Origin: Novakomyces olei
Lineage: Eukaryota
Reading direction: 5' to 3'
Assembly: GCA_016906335.1 (NCBI GenBank)
Contig: JADEYG010000012.1
Coordinates: 806,001-870,000 of the forward strand
Length of the DNA stretch: 64,000 bases
Position 1 is the first letter of the stretch. Each line of letters opens with the position of its first letter. The notes under the pieces are model-generated. The model saw nothing but the letters and a program-made list of their open reading frames with translations, did no database searches and was not told the origin of the DNA. Made by a program: the position numbers and the translations under genes. This document shows positions 24,455-45,360 of the stretch, in pieces.

Positions 24455-26687
24455 TCAACGTGCCGTCTTGGTCATCTCAATTCCCGCATCTTCCACATGT
24501 TTACTCTTGTGCTTTACAATCTGATTGCCACGGCGGGTAATCTTTTTCAGCTTCAACTCAACATAGCCATTGTCGGGATAATTGATGGGCGACTCGCTTC
24601 CTGTAAACAGGAATATGTCATACACAAGCGCACCGGCAATCCCGCCGCCAATGCAGCCGCCCCAGACACCCCACGTCCACCACCAATGAGTCAGATGGAA
24701 AGCGTGGGCTCCGTACCCCACCATTGAGGCAAAAATACGTGGACCCAGGTCACGTGCTGGGTTAAGGGTAAAACTGGTCTGGTATCCCAGAGCCATACCA
24801 ATGGCAGCGATTGCCAGGCCGACGACAAGAGCCATAAGGCCATTGGACGGTGGGTTGTTAGCATCGTCACCCAGAGCCAGAAGGCAGAGAATGAAGACCG
24901 CACTGCCGATAAACTCGTTGAAAAAGGCATTTCGCCATGTTACATAGGGGCGAGGATTCGTAAACAGACAGGCACCAGAGGCGGCAGTGCGAATATGCGA
25001 GCCGCCTTCATACTCGTTTATACTGCTCCAAAAGTACCCATAAGACAGAGCACCGCCAAAGAAGGCTCCACAGATTTGTGCAAAAATGTATTTTGGCACT
25101 TTGCGCCATGGAAATCCTCGGAAAATAGCCATTACTAATGTCACGACGGGGCTCACGTGGCCACCGCTGCGTCCGGCGGCTACAAAGATGGAAAGCATTA
25201 CACCAAAACCCCACGCAAATGATAAACTGCAATTAGTATAAAAGAAGTGTATGAATTAGAAAGGTAAGATGGCACGTGATTATTTCCTTGTTTTAATTTT
25301 TATTTTTATTTTTATTTTTATTTTTATTTTTATTTTTATTTTTATTTTTATTTTTATTTTTATTTTTATTTTTATTTTTATTTTTATTTTTTTGGTTTTG
25401 TTTCCATGTCTGTATTTTTTTTCTCTTTTTTTTCTTTTATTTCATTTTTACATAATCTCTCAAGTCGTAGTCTTACCTTTCATACGACCCACCGGCGCCG
25501 TTACGCACCACGGTAGCCTGTAAATTACCACCCGTACCAAACACAACAAGCACCATTGTACCAATAAACTCGGCAAACGGTTCCCGAAGCCTGTACCGAA
25601 TTTTCGACCACATATTTGGGAAAGTGATGAGGTTATTGTCGTCGTCCGTTTCCGAATCCTGCGGCGACTTGTCCAGTGGCGGTGGCGATTCCACGAGCGG
25701 GTGCTCATCGTCCTCTTCGTGGTTCACAGAATTTGCTTCGCTGTCTATTGTGAACCGGACATCGTGGTGTGCGTGCTGTGGAGTGAGCTGCTGCCTTTGC
25801 CTCTTGCTGTTCTCCACAAAGGACGACGAAGGTTTGAGGTGCTTTGAAACACGTGCACTAGCTGGTTTGCCATTAACATTTTTTAATGCCTCTAAATCAT
25901 CAGGAGCTTGCGATACAGAGTTTGATGCTGAGCTAAGCAGCCGACGCCACGTGGGCACGTGTGGAAGTTGGGGCGATGATCCAGCCGAGGCAGCTGCAGT
26001 TGCAGTTGCAGCGTTTGGCAGTGAAGCAGCCGATGCGTTACGCGAGGGCCCACGCGAAGTACTACGCGACCCAGCGCGTAAATTGGTACGCGAAGCCGCC
26101 CGTCGAGACCGAACTTCATTGTTTTTTTGTGCAATTTTTTCCGCCAGTGAGCGGTTCAGAACGTGTGGGAACGACTGGTTAAGGCTCCACAGCGGTTTCC
26201 CGCGGGTACGCACTTGCCCGCTCATTGCCGGATTGAACTCCTCATAGTACGGATCTATGTAAGAGCCATTTCGGCGGTAAGCGCCGAGACGGCTTTGCAA
26301 GTAATCGTACATTTGCCTCTCGCTCACCTCCGAGTCCTGTTCCAGCCGATGAAGGTTCGGAGCGGATCTGTTTGCCTTTAACCGACGGCGGCGGGCTGCC
26401 TCCCGCACAGCCTGAATTTGGTTCAATTCTTCTTCTTCTTCTTCCTCATCTTGTTGTTGCCCAGCGCCTCGGCCATCTCGAGGGCCGAGGCGAGCTTCGT
26501 CCTGTGCAACTATACCCCCCGTACTCACTGGCCGGCCTCCTCCTCTTGCAGGCTCTGTTCGAATCGAGGGCGGAGGCATCTCTGGCCCTAATTCTGCCTC
26601 TGATGCATCACTGCTATGATCATTGCGAGCAGGCGTATCGTCCATTCGAACGCTTTTGCCAGACTGATGGCTGTTTGCTTCCTCCAT
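24455..26687 (-). CDS. Aquaglyceroporin (MIP family) with long cytosolic N-terminus (intron 25227-25476)
   Basis: Motifs REPFAEFIGT, SFAWGFG, SGGHVSPVVT, RGFPWRKV, GYQTSFTLNPARDLGPR and ESPINYP. The NPARD motif indicates the glycerol-facilitator subfamily. Confidence 0.93.
25296..25391. repeat. (ATTTTT)16 intronic microsatellite
   Basis: Perfect 6-nt periodicity inside the aquaglyceroporin intron. Confidence 0.95.
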
Positions 26688-26952
26688 CGGTCCCGAGAGG
26701 GGCCGCTCGACTGCCGTATATATCACTTTTCGGCTCTATAGTGTTACTTTTATTCACAGCCCGCATTAAACCCACGCATGCCCGTTAGGGCAGGTCGCTT
26801 TCCTTTTTGGGATTCGGGCCGAGGGTGCCGTCATTATCGGTGGGCGTCTACTAATATGGCATCGTGGTTTGACATTTAACGGGTATTGGCACACGAAAAG
26901 ATTGAAAAATGGAAATAAAATAGCAAAGAAAAATAGTAATAGAATCATAATA

Positions 26953-27080
26953 AAATTGGAAAGGAAATTGGAAAGGAAATTGGAAAGGAAATTGGAAAGG
27001 AAATTGGAAAGGAAATTGGAAAGGAAATTGGAAAGGAAATTGGAAAGGAAATTGAAAAGAAAAATGGAAAGGAAATTGGG
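26953..27080. repeat. 12-nt minisatellite (AAATTGGAAAGG)x8 plus degenerate copies
   Basis: Eight perfect copies at 26953-27048, then 2-3 decayed units. Lies between the HDAC stop and the aquaglyceroporin start. Confidence 0.95.
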
Positions 27081-27197
27081 AATAATGGAAAGAAAAAAAG
27101 GGAAAAAGAAGCAGCCTTTTCTATATGTACATATGTATATTTGCAGTCATCTCATTATTACCATGCCCATTTGGCAGTGTAGTCAGCCTATATACAA

Positions 27198-29323
27198 TCA
27201 ATAGCCTTCGATACTCAGCCTCCGCCGGCGCCGTTCTTTAGCTGCTTTAGAAGCGGCCGCGTTTGCAAAAAAAGCAGCTGCCCCACCGCCTTTAGTCATC
27301 CTCCATTGGGCCGGCAAGTTCAACGTTGTGGGCCCAAACGTTGAAACTTCCATCGCCAGCCGCGCCATACACTGCCAGTGCTGCCGCTGCACCATAATAA
27401 CATTGGTCAAAGACTGCTGGGCAGATATATTGGGCCGGACGGATGCTAAACTGCCTAATAGATCAGTGTGAGGAACGTCTCCCGAGGAAGAGGCAACTAG
27501 CTCTTGCAGGCAGGCAGCAGCTGCGTTAGCCAGCGGAGACAGTTCATAGCCTCCTTCCAACACCATTATAACCCGACCGCCTTTTAGACCAGCGACTAAT
27601 TGCGTCATCAAGCTCAGTCCGTGTGGTGTTACCCTGTACCCGCCCAACCCATCCATGTGTCCTTCCACGAGATCGAAGCCGGCGGAAATGAAAACGAGAT
27701 CTGGGGCAAATTCTCTGGCAATAGGAAGGACAATATGATGCACAGCCGCCAAATACTCTGTATCGCCCATCCGATCAGAACGATCTTTGGCCTTGGACCA
27801 GCCGATATTCACGTTACGGCCCAGTCCACGGCCCTCGCCGCACCTGTCCAGGTCCCCAGTGAAAGGGTAAAAGTCGCCATCGTCATAGCGATGCAGGGAG
27901 ATGTAGAGCACATCATCCTTATCGTAAAAGCAAGCCTCTGTCCCATTGCCGTGGTGAACGTCCCAGTCAACGATCAGGATTCTACGTACTTTTTCCGGAT
28001 AATGCTGCAGCGCCCACCGGCTGGCCGTTGCTACGTTGTTGTATATACAAAAGCCCATCGCCTGGTCTGGCTCTGCATGGTGGCCGGGCGGACGAATAGC
28101 AGCGAACCCGTTCTTCAGTCTGTCCGTGACCACACTGTTCACAAGGTTGAGCAAACTGCCCACCGATTGACGGCATTCTGTTGGACTCCGGTCCGGATCG
28201 AATACTGTATCCACTGCTGTTCCCATATTTCCGCACCGTAGCTTACTTGTAAGCGTGGGAGGCCATTGCTGGTGTGGGTCCTCGCCTTCCTCAACAACGG
28301 CTGATTCTTCATTTGCCACTGTTACGGCATTCTGCAGCGGCACAAGTGCCCCATCCGCAGTGACTACAGAACCCCTTCGGGGCACAGGGTCCTCTGGTGC
28401 TACTTCGCCACTCGTAACTGACGTAGAATGTGCATTTGCCAGCGGCGGTTTTGCTTTTAGAGTGGCATCAGGGTTAGGGTCGGCCTCTTTATTGCTATCC
28501 GAAGAATCCTTTGTCGCGGCGACCGGCTTAGCATAATAATTTCGCATATGGACCTCACCGTGTACTCCTGCAATTTCCTCACGCAGAGCCAAACGACGAG
28601 GCGTGTTTAACACATAACGGAGTAACCCCCTACGGTGCCACTCTGTAACGATATACCGTAACCGATCAGCCCGCTCTGGGTGAAGACCGACACCGGCTTT
28701 AACTGGCTCGACTTTACGTACTGCAGAACAAGGGCATCCGTGGCCCAGTCCAGACCATACAACACCTGTTCTCTCCTGGCTAGCACTTTTCGTCTTTCGC
28801 GCACGATGAAAGTCAGCGTAATCCTCCCACCCTGCTTCAATTTCAGGTCCACGTACGCCGTAGCGCAAAAACGAATTTGATGAGGAATTTTCAGTGCTTG
28901 GGTTCGTCTTTTTGTCTTGACTTGAGTTTTCAATGAGCTCATTTTTAGTGTCTGCCTCCAATTTCGTTGCCTTTGTGTCTGCTTGTTCCTTGTTCTCTTC
29001 TTTTACCCTTTTTGGCTCCTCGTCGTCTTCCTCCTCCTCTTCTGTATTATCAGACTCCAGTCGGCGTACCATGTTTGGTGGGATCCAGTCATCTTCTATC
29101 GCAGAAAACCCTTCGAAATGAACAAAGACTACTGCAGTATCCTGGGATTCTGCACTCAATGGTGTAATGTTATCACTCCGACCAAAGTAGAATTTGGGGA
29201 AGATTCCCAACTGGACAACACGTGCCGCATACCAGGTTCCGTCAGTATGTGGCTTGATTGCTTCGATTTTGGCGCCAGGACGAAGATCTGCCATGATGTG
29301 AGCAATCGCCTAAACCAAGCATC

Positions 29324-29354
<31 letters not shown>

Positions 29355-30707
29355 TGGCGATCAAATCAAATAAGGAAAACAAATTTGATAAATAAAATTT
29401 AGCTAAATTAAAAAAATAATTAATTGTACCTGGATGAGTAGAGAGTATAACGCCATCGTAGCCTGATTCTTCTGGTTCTGTTTTCGCATCATCAGTCACG
29501 TCCAAAGATTTCACTAAGGGTGAGGAGTTGCCTGAGAAATTCACAGAAGATACAGGCAGGTTTACGGACGCTGCGCTGGACAATTGCGGGCTGTTTTCCA
29601 AATCATCCAAGACCTTACGGCGTTTAGACGCAGAAGACGCGTTAGACACGCTTGATAAGTCATCAGGATAGTTTTGCTGGTAAACAAGAGGAGAAGGTGC
29701 TCTATTTCCTTGTGCGGCCGTCCGTGCACAAGCCCTATAGATGTTTTGAAAGTGGTGGGGCCCATAGTTGAACCCAGATGGCACGAGGACTACATTTCCT
29801 CCTGCATCAGTTCTCTGCGAGAATCCCGTGTTTTTTGGGTAATTGTATCGAGCTTGCTCATCTAGACAGTAGACGTTAGTAAGAATTTGCAAATGTCCTT
29901 GGCCCGTAATTCACCGTTCGCTCCAACGCGGCATTGAAATAAGAATATCGATAAAACTGATAAACAAAGAAAAATAAAAGAAAATAGTGACATTTAGGTT
30001 CATGCAAATCATAATTCATGTTTTAATTTGATATTCCACTGAAACATTTAAGTAATGTAATATGCAATTAGGAGTAAATAAAAATAAAACTTCCGCTAAT
30101 CTTATTAGGTCCCAGAAGATACGTATAGAGGTAAAATTAAAAAAACACCCGACAAAAGCATTGAGGAAATTAATGAGATCTTAATATAGGGGATAGATAA
30201 TGGTTATATGAAGGGTCAAATTAGCATGCACGCCAAATAATAGAGGCTTTTTCAATTATCATAGTTCAGAGTTGACAGTAAGAGTTTTGCAAAATAGAAA
30301 TCAATAAGCATCTGTTCTTTCAAATCAGACAGTCTCATACTCAAGTCTTGGAAAAGGGCTAAACATCAAACATAGAAGACAAGCAGTAAACAAGGGACTC
30401 GCGGATTTTGTGACCGGCGAGAGTTAGAAACACAAGTGCCGCACCATTTACTATACATGAATAGTAGATTAAATGTTGACAAAATGATATAGGTAATATG
30501 TCCTCACAATAGGTGGCAATTACGCAATGATCAGTCTGCGCAAATAATACAGATTTAGAAAAGCATAAAAAATGACCGCCAATACGTTGTGCGCCAAGTG
30601 CAAACTGCAGGCGGCGGAGCGTCTGGAGATATAGTCATACCGTACGGGTGTGATGTCGGTCGGCGACTTTGATCGTCGTCGGCATTGAGGAGTAGCCGAA
30701 TATCCAT
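27198..30707 (-). CDS. Class II histone deacetylase with class IIa (HDAC4-like) features and an N-terminal Tudor-knot/chromo-barrel
   Basis: HDAC motifs HPE, RPPGHHA, GFC, DWDVHHGNGT, SLHRYDDGDFYP, SAGFD and LEGGY in ORF 27198-29294. Inferred upstream exons in phase: 30707-30641 (MDIRLLLN...), optional 29956-29915, and 29861-29430, spliced to 29287. The core is certain; the 5' exon model is inferred. Confidence 0.9.
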
Positions 30708-41391: not shown

Positions 41392-44300
41392 TTATGCGTC
41401 CAAATAGTCTGCTACACTGGCAACAGAATAAATAAGCCGTGCCTGGCAAGAAGCCTCACTGGCCAGCAGCGCGATGTAGACACGCTGGGCCACACTGAGG
41501 TTTGCAGAGGCTCCAAAAGTACACCAGTCACGGTAGGAAATAGCGTGTGGACACATGCAGACTTTCTTCAAAAACGCCATGACGGAGTTGGGCACAAGCA
41601 TAGAAATTTCACGATAGTCATAGTCATCCTTCATGATCCCAAACAGCCGCTGAGCACTGTACCAAATTGCATCTCGGAACGGTGTGGAGTCCAGCTTTGA
41701 CACTCCCAAGTCTCGGCCCACCGAGTCAAGTGCCGGTTTGGCTGCACTGCTCCTGGCACTGGCCAAATCCTCCATGGCTGTGAGATCGTCGAGTGCCTCC
41801 ATGGCATTATGAAACTCGCGTTCAAACAGCTCGTCCATCTGTGGGATGTAGCGGCCAATAATAGCGGAAGCTTGATCTTCCCAGCTGTACTCTCCAAGCT
41901 GCAGTATATCCTGGTCACTGCTCTTTGAAAAATAGCGTCCATTACCGGCCAAAGCGTCCGCCTCTAGTGGACTGCGTGGCACGTATCCCCTGGCAGTGTA
42001 CCTCGAGGCATCTTGCAGCATAATCCCCACTGGCCTATCATCCGCATTTCTGCCTGCACGATCAGCTGTACCCAGTGTCGAAGCGGCCGCTGCCCTTCGA
42101 CGCAGACGGGGCAAAGTGCTTGATTGTAGATTGCTGCCTTCGCTACTGGCACTGTCACCTTGAAGAGTGGCACTACCACCATCAAAATCAGCACCCGTTT
42201 TGCCTGTTTCCAATCGCGATAGCTGAGCAAGCGGTGAGGCAGTTGACGGAGCCGATGTGGAAGTAGTAGGAGCCACAGGACTCGCAGCAAGTGCAGAAGC
42301 GGGTGCTATAATACTACAACTGCCATTGCCATTGCCACTGCCAATGCCTCCAGTGCTCTTACCCTCAGCGTTACTCCGTGGCGATGGAGGCCGACTCGAT
42401 GTTTGCAGCTCGCCTGTTCGCGAGTCAATGCACTGCTCAAAGCTGTGCAGACGGTTAATCTCTCTCATCGATCCAGTCTGCTCTGCTCCATTAGCTTTGT
42501 CACCACACCGAGCCAGACGCGCCCGGAGCAAATGCTGCAGGGAAAGGTACTCGCCTGACTGAGCACTGTCGTTATTATTGTCGTTGTTATTGTCGTTATT
42601 ATTGCTGCTACTGCTGCTGCTGCCGTTATTGTTGTTATTGCTACTACTACTACTGCTGCCGAGCCCTTGTCCCTGGACGCCGTAGGCAAAGGCGTCCACG
42701 AACGAGGGCACAGTCAGTTTTGCCAGTGGCGAGTGACGTATAAGGCTGTCGTAAAGGTTCTGTGAGATTTGGTTGCGTACTTTATAGCTCGGATGGAACA
42801 GGTCCTTGGGCCTCAAGGAGCCAAGCTCCTGTAGCCAGCGCAGTTCAGAATCAATCGTGTTTGAGTCCTGTGGTGGCAGCGAGGCAGGAGCTATAGCGGG
42901 CGAGCGTACACACGACCCTCCAAGGGTATCCGCCTCTGGAACTAGGGCAAAAGACAGAGCCTGCTGGCACCGGGCAGAGAAGAAGCATACACAGGCCATT
43001 GCCTGGACTAAGGCAGCCATTGTCCAAAACTCTGTACTATCCTTGGGGCCAGAGTTCCCATGCAACAGTTCACGGACATGCTCCCTGCGAAAGCCCCAGG
43101 GACACCGGATAAGCAGAGGCAGGTAAGGCGCCAGGCGACGGAACCTGGACGGAGCGTGATCCAGGCCTTTGAGCCACTCACACTCTGCAACAGTGGCACT
43201 TTCCTCAAAAAAGGCCGATAGCAGGGAAAGATAGTACTGGCAAGACATTACACTGGCCGTCATTATGCCCAGGTAAAGCTTGTAGGCCAGTGGCAATGGG
43301 CCATTGTTTGAATGGATGAGCCACTCAAACGTCTCGTAAACGCTACCAAGGTATCTCGGGAAATACGCCAGCATTTTACTGATGTTTGTAACTCGACCGT
43401 ACTGCAAAAACGACCGGATAAACAGCCGCGTCAAGTCTGGTCCTGCTCTCCACCTTGGGCCCACGATTCCGGAGGGCACACTCGTGCCCAAAGTGGCAGC
43501 TCGACGAGGCGAACTGTCCTGCCTCGCCCGTCTCTTGTTCGCCATTGATTTTCCCTTGGCATTATAGCTATTGCTATTATTCATATTATCGCTGCCCTGC
43601 TGGTACGAGCTAAATGGTGTTCGTGAAAAAGCAAATAGCGGACTGGGCTCCGTTATCCGCGACTGTGACTGCTGACGGGTCATGTTTTTAGCATTGCCCG
43701 TGGGCCTGAATGCGGAGGCATTAAAGGAAGAGCCGCTATTAAAAGTCACTGCTGTGTTAGGACTCTCATTCATGTCCCTCGTAGAGCTTAGACCAGACCG
43801 GCCAGAGACATTGCTCCGAGTCCTTGTGGATATTGGGATAGCAGAGGAAGAAATTGATCGGGCATCCGTGTCCTGCGCTGCCATTTCAAGTGCTGGACTC
43901 GGTGTGCTTTGGAGAGAGTAGGAATCTTCTCCTTTTCCGTCTCCTTCTTCCACCATACTAGCTTCCTCATCTGCTTCGTCTTCCACGTCTTCTTCCTCGT
44001 CTTCATACATTTCAATTTCCTCGCTATTGCCGCTAAAATCGCTCAGCATGTCCAGCGAAAACAGGGAACTGTCGTAAACCGCCGACCCTGGGCCAGGGCT
44101 CTGTCGGTTTCCCACTGAAGGCCGGCTGCCAAAAGACGCCTTGCTGCCAAAGGAGAACGATGAAAATGAATCTGAAAAAACAGAGAGCCGACGAGGTTTA
44201 CGTCGCCGTTTTGAAGAAGTGCCTACATTTGTCGCAAACCCTACAACCTCTTGCGGCGCAATAAAACAACTGGGAGAAGGTGAAATTAAATCAGGTGCAA

Positions 44301-45360
44301 AATTAACAACTTGCCGAAGTCGACGCAATTGACTGCGACAGCATCGTCTTACATCAGCATAAGGGCAGTCATTGCTCAAGTTTAAAGCTCGCAGCATATA
44401 TGCCCCGAGCAATTCTCGCCGGGCCGATTGCTCCTCAATATTATTGGCAGCTGGATCGTTCTTCATTTCCTCTTCCAACACCATTTCGTCAACGCCATAG
44501 GGACCAATTGATCCGAGTGTCGTACTCTGATAATTTGTAGAGCCATTAAATCTTTCGTCGCCCGCCAATTTAGATCTAAACTGAACTCCCGCAATAATAG
44601 GAGTTCCCTCATTGTTTAGGCCAGAAAGGTTTGAAAACGAATCGTTTGGCGATAAGACGCTGGGCGACTCTAATCTAAATTTTGCCAAATTCTCTGCATT
44701 TTCTGCATCTTCTTCTACACTAAAGACTTCGTCCCAGGGAGAGTCACCTGATGTAGGCTGCTGCTGTTGCTGTTGTTGTTCTTGTTGCTGTTGTGCTAGC
44801 CGGCCGTCTTTACTAGAATTGTAAGCAGCATTGGCAGTTTGTGGAGCACGTGTTGAAGGCGATGGAGCAGGCCGAGGAGTTTCTGCCTCCGCAATAGCCG
44901 CTGGACGAGAGTTGGGGGCTTTTGAAATCAGACTACGCCAAGCCTGGTTTCCGTACAGCGTGCGAATCAAAGACTCGAGGAGCTGAGATAGACTTTCAAG
45001 AGCATTGCGCCGTAGTGCAGGGTCATCAGTCTGAAGGCTATTGAATATGCATAATTGCGCACGGCTAGCATGAATATAGTCGAGCAATTGGCTAGACCCT
45101 AGACATATTTAATTGTGGAAACAACAAAGAAAGGATGAAACGTCAGAAGAAAGCAATCAAATAAATTAAATTAAACAAAAACAAATAAATATATAAATAA
45201 ATAAATAAATAAATAGATTAAACAAAATTAGCAAGAACGATGAATAAAATAATACAGAGGGTAAACACGATTTGGAAAATTAAATAAAATGCTTACGCCT
45301 TCTAGTCGGCCGGTGCCCGCTATCACGAGCACTGCCACTAGGTTTGGCCGGTTCAAACAT
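41392..45360 (-). CDS. Sestrin (PA26 family) with long low-complexity insertions, about 1260 aa (2 exons)
   Basis: N-domain GRVTNISKMLAYFPRYL..GPLPLAYKLYLGIMTAS..CQY..EWLKGL..APSRFRRL..PW..WTMAALVQA. C-domain YSWEDQ..FRDAIW..FGIMKDDYDY..FLKKVCMCP..EASCQARLIY. Exon 1 (ATG 45360, MFEPAKPSG...) splices in phase through a GTAAGC donor to an acceptor near 45100. Confidence 0.9.

Follow-up and report, generated by a model that had tools for sequence, protein, structure and literature searches.

In textbook accounts the class IIa histone deacetylases (HDACs) are an animal family whose members serve as corepressor adaptors under signal control and are nearly inactive as enzymes, and Hda1 of yeast is their sole fungal counterpart. 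Here we analyse a gene from the fungus Novakomyces olei, located on the minus strand of a 64,000-nucleotide stretch of DNA (positions 806,001 to 870,000 of contig JADEYG010000012.1, assembly GCA_016906335.1; hereafter the window, within which all coordinates below are counted). Its 698-residue product, P0001, combines a catalytic domain of the class IIa type, related to that of HDAC4, with an N-terminal domain that is predicted to adopt a chromo-barrel or Tudor-like fold, and is a new member of a little-noticed class IIa branch of fungi and unicellular holozoans. On the whole we judge it likely that P0001 is a zinc-dependent lysine deacetylase of the class IIa lineage, with a putative second-zinc site, predicted full activity and a predicted chromatin reader in the same chain, and that it was inherited from an opisthokont ancestor.

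Our literature search recovered no paper that deals with class IIa-type HDACs of fungi or of unicellular holozoans, nor one on a fusion of a Tudor or chromo-barrel domain to an HDAC. The nearest is a survey from 2023 (PMC10707265), the accessible part of which tabulates proteins of Neolecta, Absidia and Sphaeroforma with an HDAC domain only and without comment; the main text of a preprint on chromatin evolution (10.1101/2021.11.30.470311), to the extent that it is accessible, carries no mention of HDAC4 or class II. The affinity of the catalytic domain is thus already implicit in databases and in the 2023 survey, while the literature searched appears to contain no description of the reader domain, of where it occurs or of the evolutionary reading given below.

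The catalytic domain and its structural-zinc residues

The coding sequence (27198..29294, minus strand, as for all features of the gene given below) comprises 698 uninterrupted codons and a stop codon at 27198-27200. A Pfam search of its translation recovered a single Hist_deacetyl stretch at residues 205-598 with a score far beyond chance (E 1.8e-74, 251 bits); beyond the catalytic domain the chain continues for about 50 residues. Up to E = 1 neither Arb2 (PF09757) nor zf-UBP (PF02148) was matched, in agreement with the initial annotation, a model's reading of the nucleotide letters, which had remarked on the missing C-terminal Arb2 domain. When single domains were scored against solved structures, HDAC7 (293.9 bits) and HDAC4 (291.9) stood ahead of Clr3 (252.4) and the second catalytic domain (CD2) of HDAC6 (243), with lower scores for Hda1 (231.5), plant HDA15 (221.4) and HDAC10 (194); HDAC6 tops the whole-protein scores because it has two domains.

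The residues that would bind a structural zinc lie in two segments, the first of which (H185-G-C187-P-C189 ... H205-P-E; 28674..28742) was delimited by motif positions and profile alignment to HDAC4, and the second (L-R-C354-G-N-M-G-T-A-V-D-T-V; 28203..28241) by a loop that occurs only in the class IIa-type rows of our alignment. In P0001 the motifs HGCPC, HPER, LRCG and EGGY start at residues 185, 205, 352 and 580, respectively. In a profile alignment to HDAC4 chain 2vqw both zinc segments match, and HDAC6 is gapped at the second; the aligned C, C, H and C positions are the zinc ligands in HDAC4 and HDAC7. The initial annotation had proposed precisely such a CxC...H...C set, which we find to align column for column with HDAC4, and the codons it gave are exact (C187, 28734-28736; C189, 28728-28730; C354, 28233-28235; Y583, 27546-27548), just as every motif that it quoted (LHRYDDGDFYP, MGDTEYLAA, EFAPD and GFDLVEGHMDGLGGY) is found in the translation.

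A census of these residues was taken over 80 domain rows aligned with MAFFT L-INS-i, which were picked from 181 rows by removing fragments and near-duplicates and by sampling the abundant HDAC6 and metazoan class IIa rows. The IIa-type set consists of 45 rows (11 fungal, including the query, 5 from holozoan protists, 2 unnamed and 27 metazoan), and the other 35 rows are 10 of the Hda1 type, 4 from other single-domain proteins and 21 HDAC6 domains. The complete set of C187, C189, H205 and C354 occurs in 45 of 45 IIa-type rows as against 0 of 35 others, none of which has a cysteine in the C189 or C354 columns, the latter being a gap in 34 of them and Asp in one. The same four residues are invariant in all ten members of a separate family alignment.

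The catalytic core proper (residues 370-650; 27345..28187) was delimited by Pfam, by alignment and by the predicted local distance difference test (pLDDT) score of a structural model, which is mostly above 90 in this region. The catalytic residues H405-H406 (28077-28082), D443, D445 (27960-27962), H447 (27954-27956), D541 (27672-27674) and Y583 are all conserved, the last of these within the motif LEGGY, where translation and alignment place its codon at 27546..27548. Position 583 is Tyr everywhere in the 80 rows except for seven metazoan ones: five carry His and two Phe, a tunicate row being one of the latter. The intact catalytic tyrosine noted in the initial annotation is therefore real, but it is not special to this protein, since 20 of the 27 metazoan IIa rows keep it as well. 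Because all rows retain Tyr save these seven, the alignment indicates that Tyr is the ancestral state, the His substitution marking the vertebrate members rather than the class IIa lineage.

Several elements of the domain vary within the family. The stretch between CxC and HPE carries an insertion of 9-12 residues common to P0001 and its Neolecta orthologue. A variable and probably disordered insertion at residues ~255-345 (28260..28532), delimited by pLDDT and by length variation in the alignment, ranges from tens to several hundred residues across family members. The C-terminal tail (residues 655-698; 27201..27332), defined on the ten-member family alignment, contains an L-P-x-x-W motif (L660 and P661 invariant, W664 nearly so), a basic run and the terminal residues I-E-G-Y; five of the ten members, P0001 included, end in ...EGY or ...PGY, and one more in ...VEG.

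An AlphaFold model of residues 169-665, built from a 58-row alignment, has a mean pLDDT of 80.5. Its weak parts are the 90-residue insertion and the CxC-HPE stretch, with values below 50 at model residues 98-162 (protein residues 266-330); by block, the values are 84 around C187/C189, 81 at C354 and 61 at H205. In Foldseek searches with this model HDAC4 and HDAC7 come out on top, with target template modeling scores of 0.90-0.93 versus 0.85-0.88 for HDAC6. VIA-align superimposes it on HDAC4 5zoo_G (chain 652-1046) with Z 55.7 and 1.9 A over 377 of 387 residues, with 42-45% identity for HDAC4 and HDAC7; HDAC7 follows with Z 54.6, and HDAC6 CD2 (at most 51.5) and HDA15 (50.6) are lower. The near-complete superposition on HDAC4 lends indirect support to a model in which the putative second-zinc ligands cluster.

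Distribution, reader domain and phylogeny of the family

A HMMER search of 1.84 billion representatives with P0001 gave 17,627 matches at E <= 0.001, the best 150 of which were used; they include single-domain proteins scoring above any animal enzyme. Among these 150, per-domain scores are 334-411 for fungal orthologues, 277-309 for holozoan protists, mostly 250-292 for metazoan IIa proteins, 243-271 for Hda1-type rows and at most 250 for HDAC6 domains, the fungal exceptions being P0170 (279, with a gapped domain model) and P0184 (286, a 285-residue fragment). The orthologue of Neolecta irregularis (P0123; OLL25267) is 50% identical to P0001, and the matches listed further include orthologues from Absidia, Apophysomyces, Rhizopus, Dentiscutata, Bifiguratus, Mortierella and Lunasporangiospora, as well as from the unicellular holozoans Chromosphaera, Sphaeroforma, Creolimax and 'Clim', which we take to be Corallochytrium limacisporum. 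With a ten-member family profile at least 29 fungal rows were found among the 120 matches listed, 28 of them named from Mucoromycota and one unnamed, the rest being HDAC6. At least 15 fungal rows among the matches listed carry the submitter names 'Histone deacetylase 4' or '5'. Given this spread through the Mucoromycota and the presence in Neolecta and in unicellular holozoans, the family is, as far as sequence can tell, old rather than derived from animals. One fungus, Entomortierella beljakovae, has both a protein named 'hda1' (P0255) and a family member (P0297), so that in this fungus, at least, the family and Hda1 are paralogues. A word-index search with residues 1-370 returned no match, which reflects its limited sensitivity, as HMMER later found orthologues over that part, and the ESM Atlas returned generic HDAC clusters only.

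The Neolecta gene model has a peculiarity of its own: over residues ~560-1066 it continues into a GH76 mannosidase (DCW1), after which the entry is named. This fusion is probably an annotation artefact, because the deacetylase match stops exactly where P0001 ends (...RRRRRLS-I/T-E).

The segment N-terminal to the deacetylase contains a further conserved block of the family, a chromo-barrel/Tudor-like domain (residues 6-79; 29058..29279) recognised from its predicted fold and from a family profile. AlphaFold models residues 1-85 as a barrel (pLDDT 80.7) whose five strands span residues 9-13, 21-33, 52-60, 69-71 and 76-78. In Foldseek searches its best matches are the chromo-barrels of MSL3, MRG15, MRG2 and Eaf3 (E from 4.3e-4), followed by the Tudor-type domains of UHRF1 and SAWADEE, and VIA, which is independent of Foldseek, gave Z-scores of 9.4 for a Tb Tudor domain, 8.7 for MRG15 and 8.2 for Eaf3, within a range of 9.4-8.0. 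Within the family G7, R25, H59, E61 and G62 are invariant and W70 nearly so, and conserved aromatic positions are found at W20/Y21, F60, F63 and W70. All Pfam matches are below threshold (in P0001, SAWADEE at 0.018 over residues 16-88 and Tudor-knot at 0.17; MSL3_chromo-like at 6.6e-4 in the best of 18 members, three of which matched it), and public annotations therefore give the HDAC domain alone.

A family reader profile, which scores 6e-23 on the corresponding stretch of P0001, was run against 380 fetched proteins and matched 42, namely 37 fungal family members (the query included) and five of five holozoan-protist rows; none of the metazoan class IIa, HDAC6 or Hda1 rows among the 380 was matched. 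Five matches lie outside the training set of the profile (P0174, P0235, P0123, P0179 and P0176; E 1.7e-9 to 1.4e-7), four of them holozoan and one from Neolecta. As the profile recovers fungal members and all five holozoan-protist rows, the combination of this predicted reader with an HDAC is common to both sides of the fungus-holozoan divide. The description of P0001 as animal-style in the initial annotation accordingly holds for the catalytic domain only, the N-terminus having the chromo-barrel/Tudor fold in place of the MEF2/14-3-3 adaptor; Pfam gives no HDAC4_Gln match at the N-terminus of P0001, where MEF2 and 14-3-3 motifs were not specifically searched.

Between reader and deacetylase lie an acidic low-complexity linker (residues 82-140; 28875..29051), which translation and alignment show to be non-conserved and gapped relative to most family members, and a conserved motif, L-R-Y-G-x-x-G...W..Y..F (residues 142-163; 28806..28871), in which G146, G149 and W156 are invariant across the ten-member alignment and Y159 and F162 nearly invariant. 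In one ichthyosporean member, P0168 of Chromosphaera perkinsii, RPEL repeats (Pfam 1.9e-9) occupy residues ~470-560, upstream of the reader domain. RPEL repeats are actin-binding motifs of MRTF-type regulators and an unexpected partner for a deacetylase.

Trees were built from rows that all come from the 150 best matches of the query, and are unrooted. In a FastTree analysis of 181 rows the fungal, holozoan and metazoan IIa-type rows (78 in all) are grouped with a Shimodaira-Hasegawa-like support of 99. IQ-TREE analyses of the 80 rows under LG+C20 with posterior mean site frequencies were run on all 410 columns and on a core set of 269 columns (query residues 371-650), which leaves the zinc segments out. 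The 45-row IIa-type set is supported at 97/89 on the core columns and 100/99 on all columns; the corresponding values are 100/98 and 100/100 for the clade of 11 fungal rows, 99/97 and 100/99 for the query with Neolecta, and 99/98 and 100/99 for the metazoan clade. Metazoan rows with the Pfam domain HDAC4_Gln (P0180, P0182, P0188 and P0200) fall inside the IIa-type set, and the Hda1 group includes the hda1-named proteins of Entomortierella, Savitreella and Dispira. P0001 thus groups neither with Hda1/Clr3 nor with HDAC6, joining instead the HDAC4/5/7/9-type proteins, and its placement outside Hda1/Clr3 by the initial annotation is borne out by separate groups in every tree and by the missing Arb2 domain.

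Gene model and genomic surroundings

The open frame on the minus strand runs over 703 codons from stop to stop (27198..29309), and its ATG at 29294 sits five residues ahead of the barrel domain, as in several orthologue models (in P0132, P0318, P0319 and P0346 the match to the reader profile begins at residues 5-7); at the other end ...IEGY of P0001 agrees with the conserved family end ...VEGY. Over 27000-30100, two sequencing runs that belong to different studies yielded contigs identical letter for letter. The frame given by the initial annotation (27198..29287) is real, but its upstream limit is not an ATG, being the first base after a possible acceptor (cag|) that ends at 29288. Upstream lies an ATG-less open frame (29432..29910, minus strand, within an open reading frame of 222 codons at 29242..29910), which the list of open frames and splice-like signals mark as a candidate 5' exon or as unrelated. 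The signals comprise a donor (cag|gtacaa, 29432/29431), a 26-base A/T run (29329-29354) and two possible acceptors, of which the one ending at 29288 is in phase with the deacetylase frame and the other runs to a stop at 29242. Compared with the N-termini of 36 family proteins, the upstream frame 29432-29910 showed no significant similarity (best E 0.43). We also considered a missing base in an A6 run that would join an ATG at ~29860 to this frame; this was ruled out by the contigs of the two runs, which have no indel or difference over 27000-30100. The same region also has a TACTAAC box and a ctag acceptor at ~29862-29885. Under either start model the catalytic and reader parts of the protein are the same.

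The window is eukaryotic, and the neighbours of the gene encode an IMP dehydrogenase, a malic enzyme, Oxa1, an aquaporin, a sestrin-like protein and a GPN GTPase. A tblastn search of the window with three Hda1 proteins, one HDAC4-type and one HDAC6 protein revealed no HDAC locus besides the deacetylase gene. Between the deacetylase stop and the aquaporin-type gene lies a tandem array (26953-27079) of 10.6 copies of the 12-base unit AAATTGGAAAGG with 94% matches. The MIP/aquaporin domain (24455-25255, minus strand) is preceded upstream by a long serine- and acidic-rich frame (25473-26735), whose last residues resemble the first membrane helix of the channel; because of this, the region 24455-26735 is probably a single intron-containing gene whose product has a very long N-terminal extension. 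A further frame of 1238 codons on the minus strand (41392-45108) contains a sestrin (PA26) domain (E 6.9e-57). Sestrins are not known from the model yeasts, and this gene may be another ancestral opisthokont gene retained here.

Origin and function in the light of known systems

It might be argued that P0001 is a divergent enzyme of the Hda1/Clr3 or HDAC6 type whose resemblance to class IIa motifs arose by convergence. The argument can draw on the fact that all class II domains are 38-45% identical to P0001, with modest margins between them (Clr3 252 versus HDAC7 294 bits), that a grouping of the fungal rows with Hda1 is rejected at p 0.046 only, and that, on the core columns, the IIa-type set together with two protist rows has the Hda1 group as its nearest neighbour. 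Nevertheless, we hold it to be very improbable, as P0001 has neither Arb2 nor zf-UBP, the four zinc residues and the extra C-G-x-x-G loop separate all 45 IIa-type rows from all 35 others, the IIa-type grouping stands with the zinc segments left out as well as with them, and at least one fungus holds an hda1 protein beside a family member. Horizontal transfer into fungi from an animal or a holozoan protist, which the patchy distribution among fungi might suggest, is likewise quite improbable: the 11 fungal rows fall into a single clade, which lies outside the well-supported animal clade, the ascomycete-type rows (query and Neolecta) split from those of Mucoromycota as the species tree predicts, the reader domain is common to fungal and ichthyosporean proteins, and the guanine-cytosine content near the gene (0.47-0.51) is unremarkable against the 0.39-0.53 found over the window. 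The ambiguous gene start could be taken as a sign of a decaying or unexpressed copy. This we regard as extremely improbable, in view of 698 stop-free codons, the presence of each conserved family block from the reader domain through the C-terminal ...EGY and the identity of the two runs' contigs from different studies.

A different question is whether the protein, though of class IIa descent, is chiefly a scaffold that works by way of its zinc subdomain, in the manner of vertebrate class IIa proteins with SMRT/NCoR-HDAC3, or acts in the cytoplasm on non-histone or non-acetyl substrates. Indeed, P0001 fully conserves the zinc subdomain with which HDAC4 binds SMRT fragments (5zoo, 5zop), and class II includes the tubulin and polyamine deacetylases HDAC6 and HDAC10; yet all family members examined retain Tyr583 and the zinc- and charge-relay residues, which speaks for selection on catalysis, and a fused chromo-barrel/Tudor fold is a typical feature of chromatin proteins. 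We accordingly consider such roles unlikely. The reading of P0001 as an active, chromatin-directed class IIa-type enzyme of vertical descent has, for its part, several points against it. The trees include no HDAC10, plant class II, Hos3 or bacterial outgroup rows, and with this sampling the root and the exact sister group are beyond them; the bootstrap of the 410-column tree is not fully converged (correlation 0.975). The rejection of the Hda1 grouping is marginal (a tree constrained to unite the 11 fungal rows with 8 Hda1 rows is worse by 35.4 log-likelihood units on the core columns, with p 0.046 in the approximately unbiased test), and the group tested was fixed after a tree was in view, though the hypothesis had been named earlier. 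The structures used to train AlphaFold include HDAC4 and HDAC7, which the model of the catalytic domain may copy. The reader matches concern a very common small fold, with Z of 8-9, a Foldseek E of only 4e-4 and Pfam scores below threshold. Finally, as far as the 5' end is concerned, the gene may begin at ATG 29294 or have a spliced 5' extension.

The preferred reading, that of an active class IIa-type deacetylase tethered to chromatin, would imply the following picture of its function. The accessible portion of PMC13763078 reports that HDAC4, nearly inactive as such, becomes highly active when the tyrosine is restored; because of this and of the complete set of catalytic residues including Tyr583, P0001 is expected to possess real deacetylase activity, resembling the His-to-Tyr gain-of-function form of HDAC4 and not the weak vertebrate class IIa enzymes. 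The barrel domain would dock the enzyme to chromatin in the nucleus, probably via a methylated histone lysine, though this ligand is a guess, and the catalytic domain would then strip nearby acetyl groups. Reader and eraser would in this way be coupled in one chain, comparable to the coupling in trans of Eaf3 and Rpd3 within Rpd3S, and the structural-zinc subdomain, if it holds its metal, might offer a docking surface for corepressors as it does in HDAC4.

The reader-plus-HDAC architecture was probably already present in the ancestor of opisthokonts, because it is common to Neolecta, many Mucoromycota, Ichthyosporea and Corallochytrium; from there the gene would have descended vertically, most Dikarya losing it and animals replacing the reader. 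A more detailed scenario, on which we are evenly divided, is that the animal-fungal ancestor had an active class IIa-type enzyme with a zinc subdomain, tethered by its own reader, that animals swapped this reader for the MEF2/14-3-3 adaptor, that vertebrates subsequently disabled catalysis, and that most Dikarya lost the gene. Were this so, the fungal and ichthyosporean proteins would reveal what class IIa enzymes and their zinc subdomain originally did, in organisms that allow its study without the vertebrate paralogues. The weight of these observations is limited in that public protein sets already contain family members, often automatically named 'Histone deacetylase 4/5', and in that the 2023 survey lists several of them. 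What they establish is that a class IIa catalytic domain with the second-zinc residues occurs among fungi and among unicellular relatives of animals, where its active site is intact and a reader fold is fused to it; they offer a concrete picture of the ancestral enzyme, and the role of the class IIa zinc subdomain and catalytic pocket becomes testable in simple organisms. There is also a practical side, in that trifluoromethyl-oxadiazoles are class IIa-selective tools in mammals and a related compound is in development as an HDAC-targeting fungicide, as stated in the accessible portion of PMC13763078; it would therefore be useful to learn which fungi have a class IIa-type enzyme.

Set beside the described systems, P0001 belongs to the same lineage as metazoan HDAC4, HDAC5, HDAC7 and HDAC9 (2vqj, 5zoo, 3c0y) and shares with them the four zinc residues and the extra C-G-G-type loop, as well as the catalytic tyrosine of 20 of the 27 metazoan rows, which are presumably those of invertebrates; vertebrate enzymes have His (five rows; stated also in the accessible text of PMC13763078). 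It differs from the metazoan proteins in its chromo-barrel/Tudor N-terminus, found in none of the metazoan rows, in having no recognisable adaptor region, and in the 90-residue disordered insertion and the 9-12 extra residues between CxC and HPE. With Hda1 of S. cerevisiae (6z6f) and Clr3 of S. pombe (5ikk) it has in common the class II fold, the catalytic tyrosine, a fungal host and ~42-44% identity in the core. Those enzymes, however, carry a C-terminal Arb2 domain (PF09757 on P0206 and P0232) and form a separate group in the trees, and the Hda1-type rows uniformly (10 of 10) have no Cys in the C189 and C354 columns and no loop. HDAC6, of class IIb, also shares the class II fold and the catalytic tyrosine, and is set apart by its tandem catalytic domains, its zf-UBP domain, the absence of the structural CCHC site from 21 of 21 domain rows and lower per-domain scores. 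In its reader P0001 shares the chromo-barrel fold of Eaf3, MRG15 and MSL3, and the proposed logic, in which a methyl-lysine reader would guide a deacetylase, is like that of Rpd3S, as a functional analogy only: in Rpd3S the reader and a class I enzyme reside on separate subunits, whereas in P0001 a single chain unites the predicted reader with an enzyme of the class IIa type.

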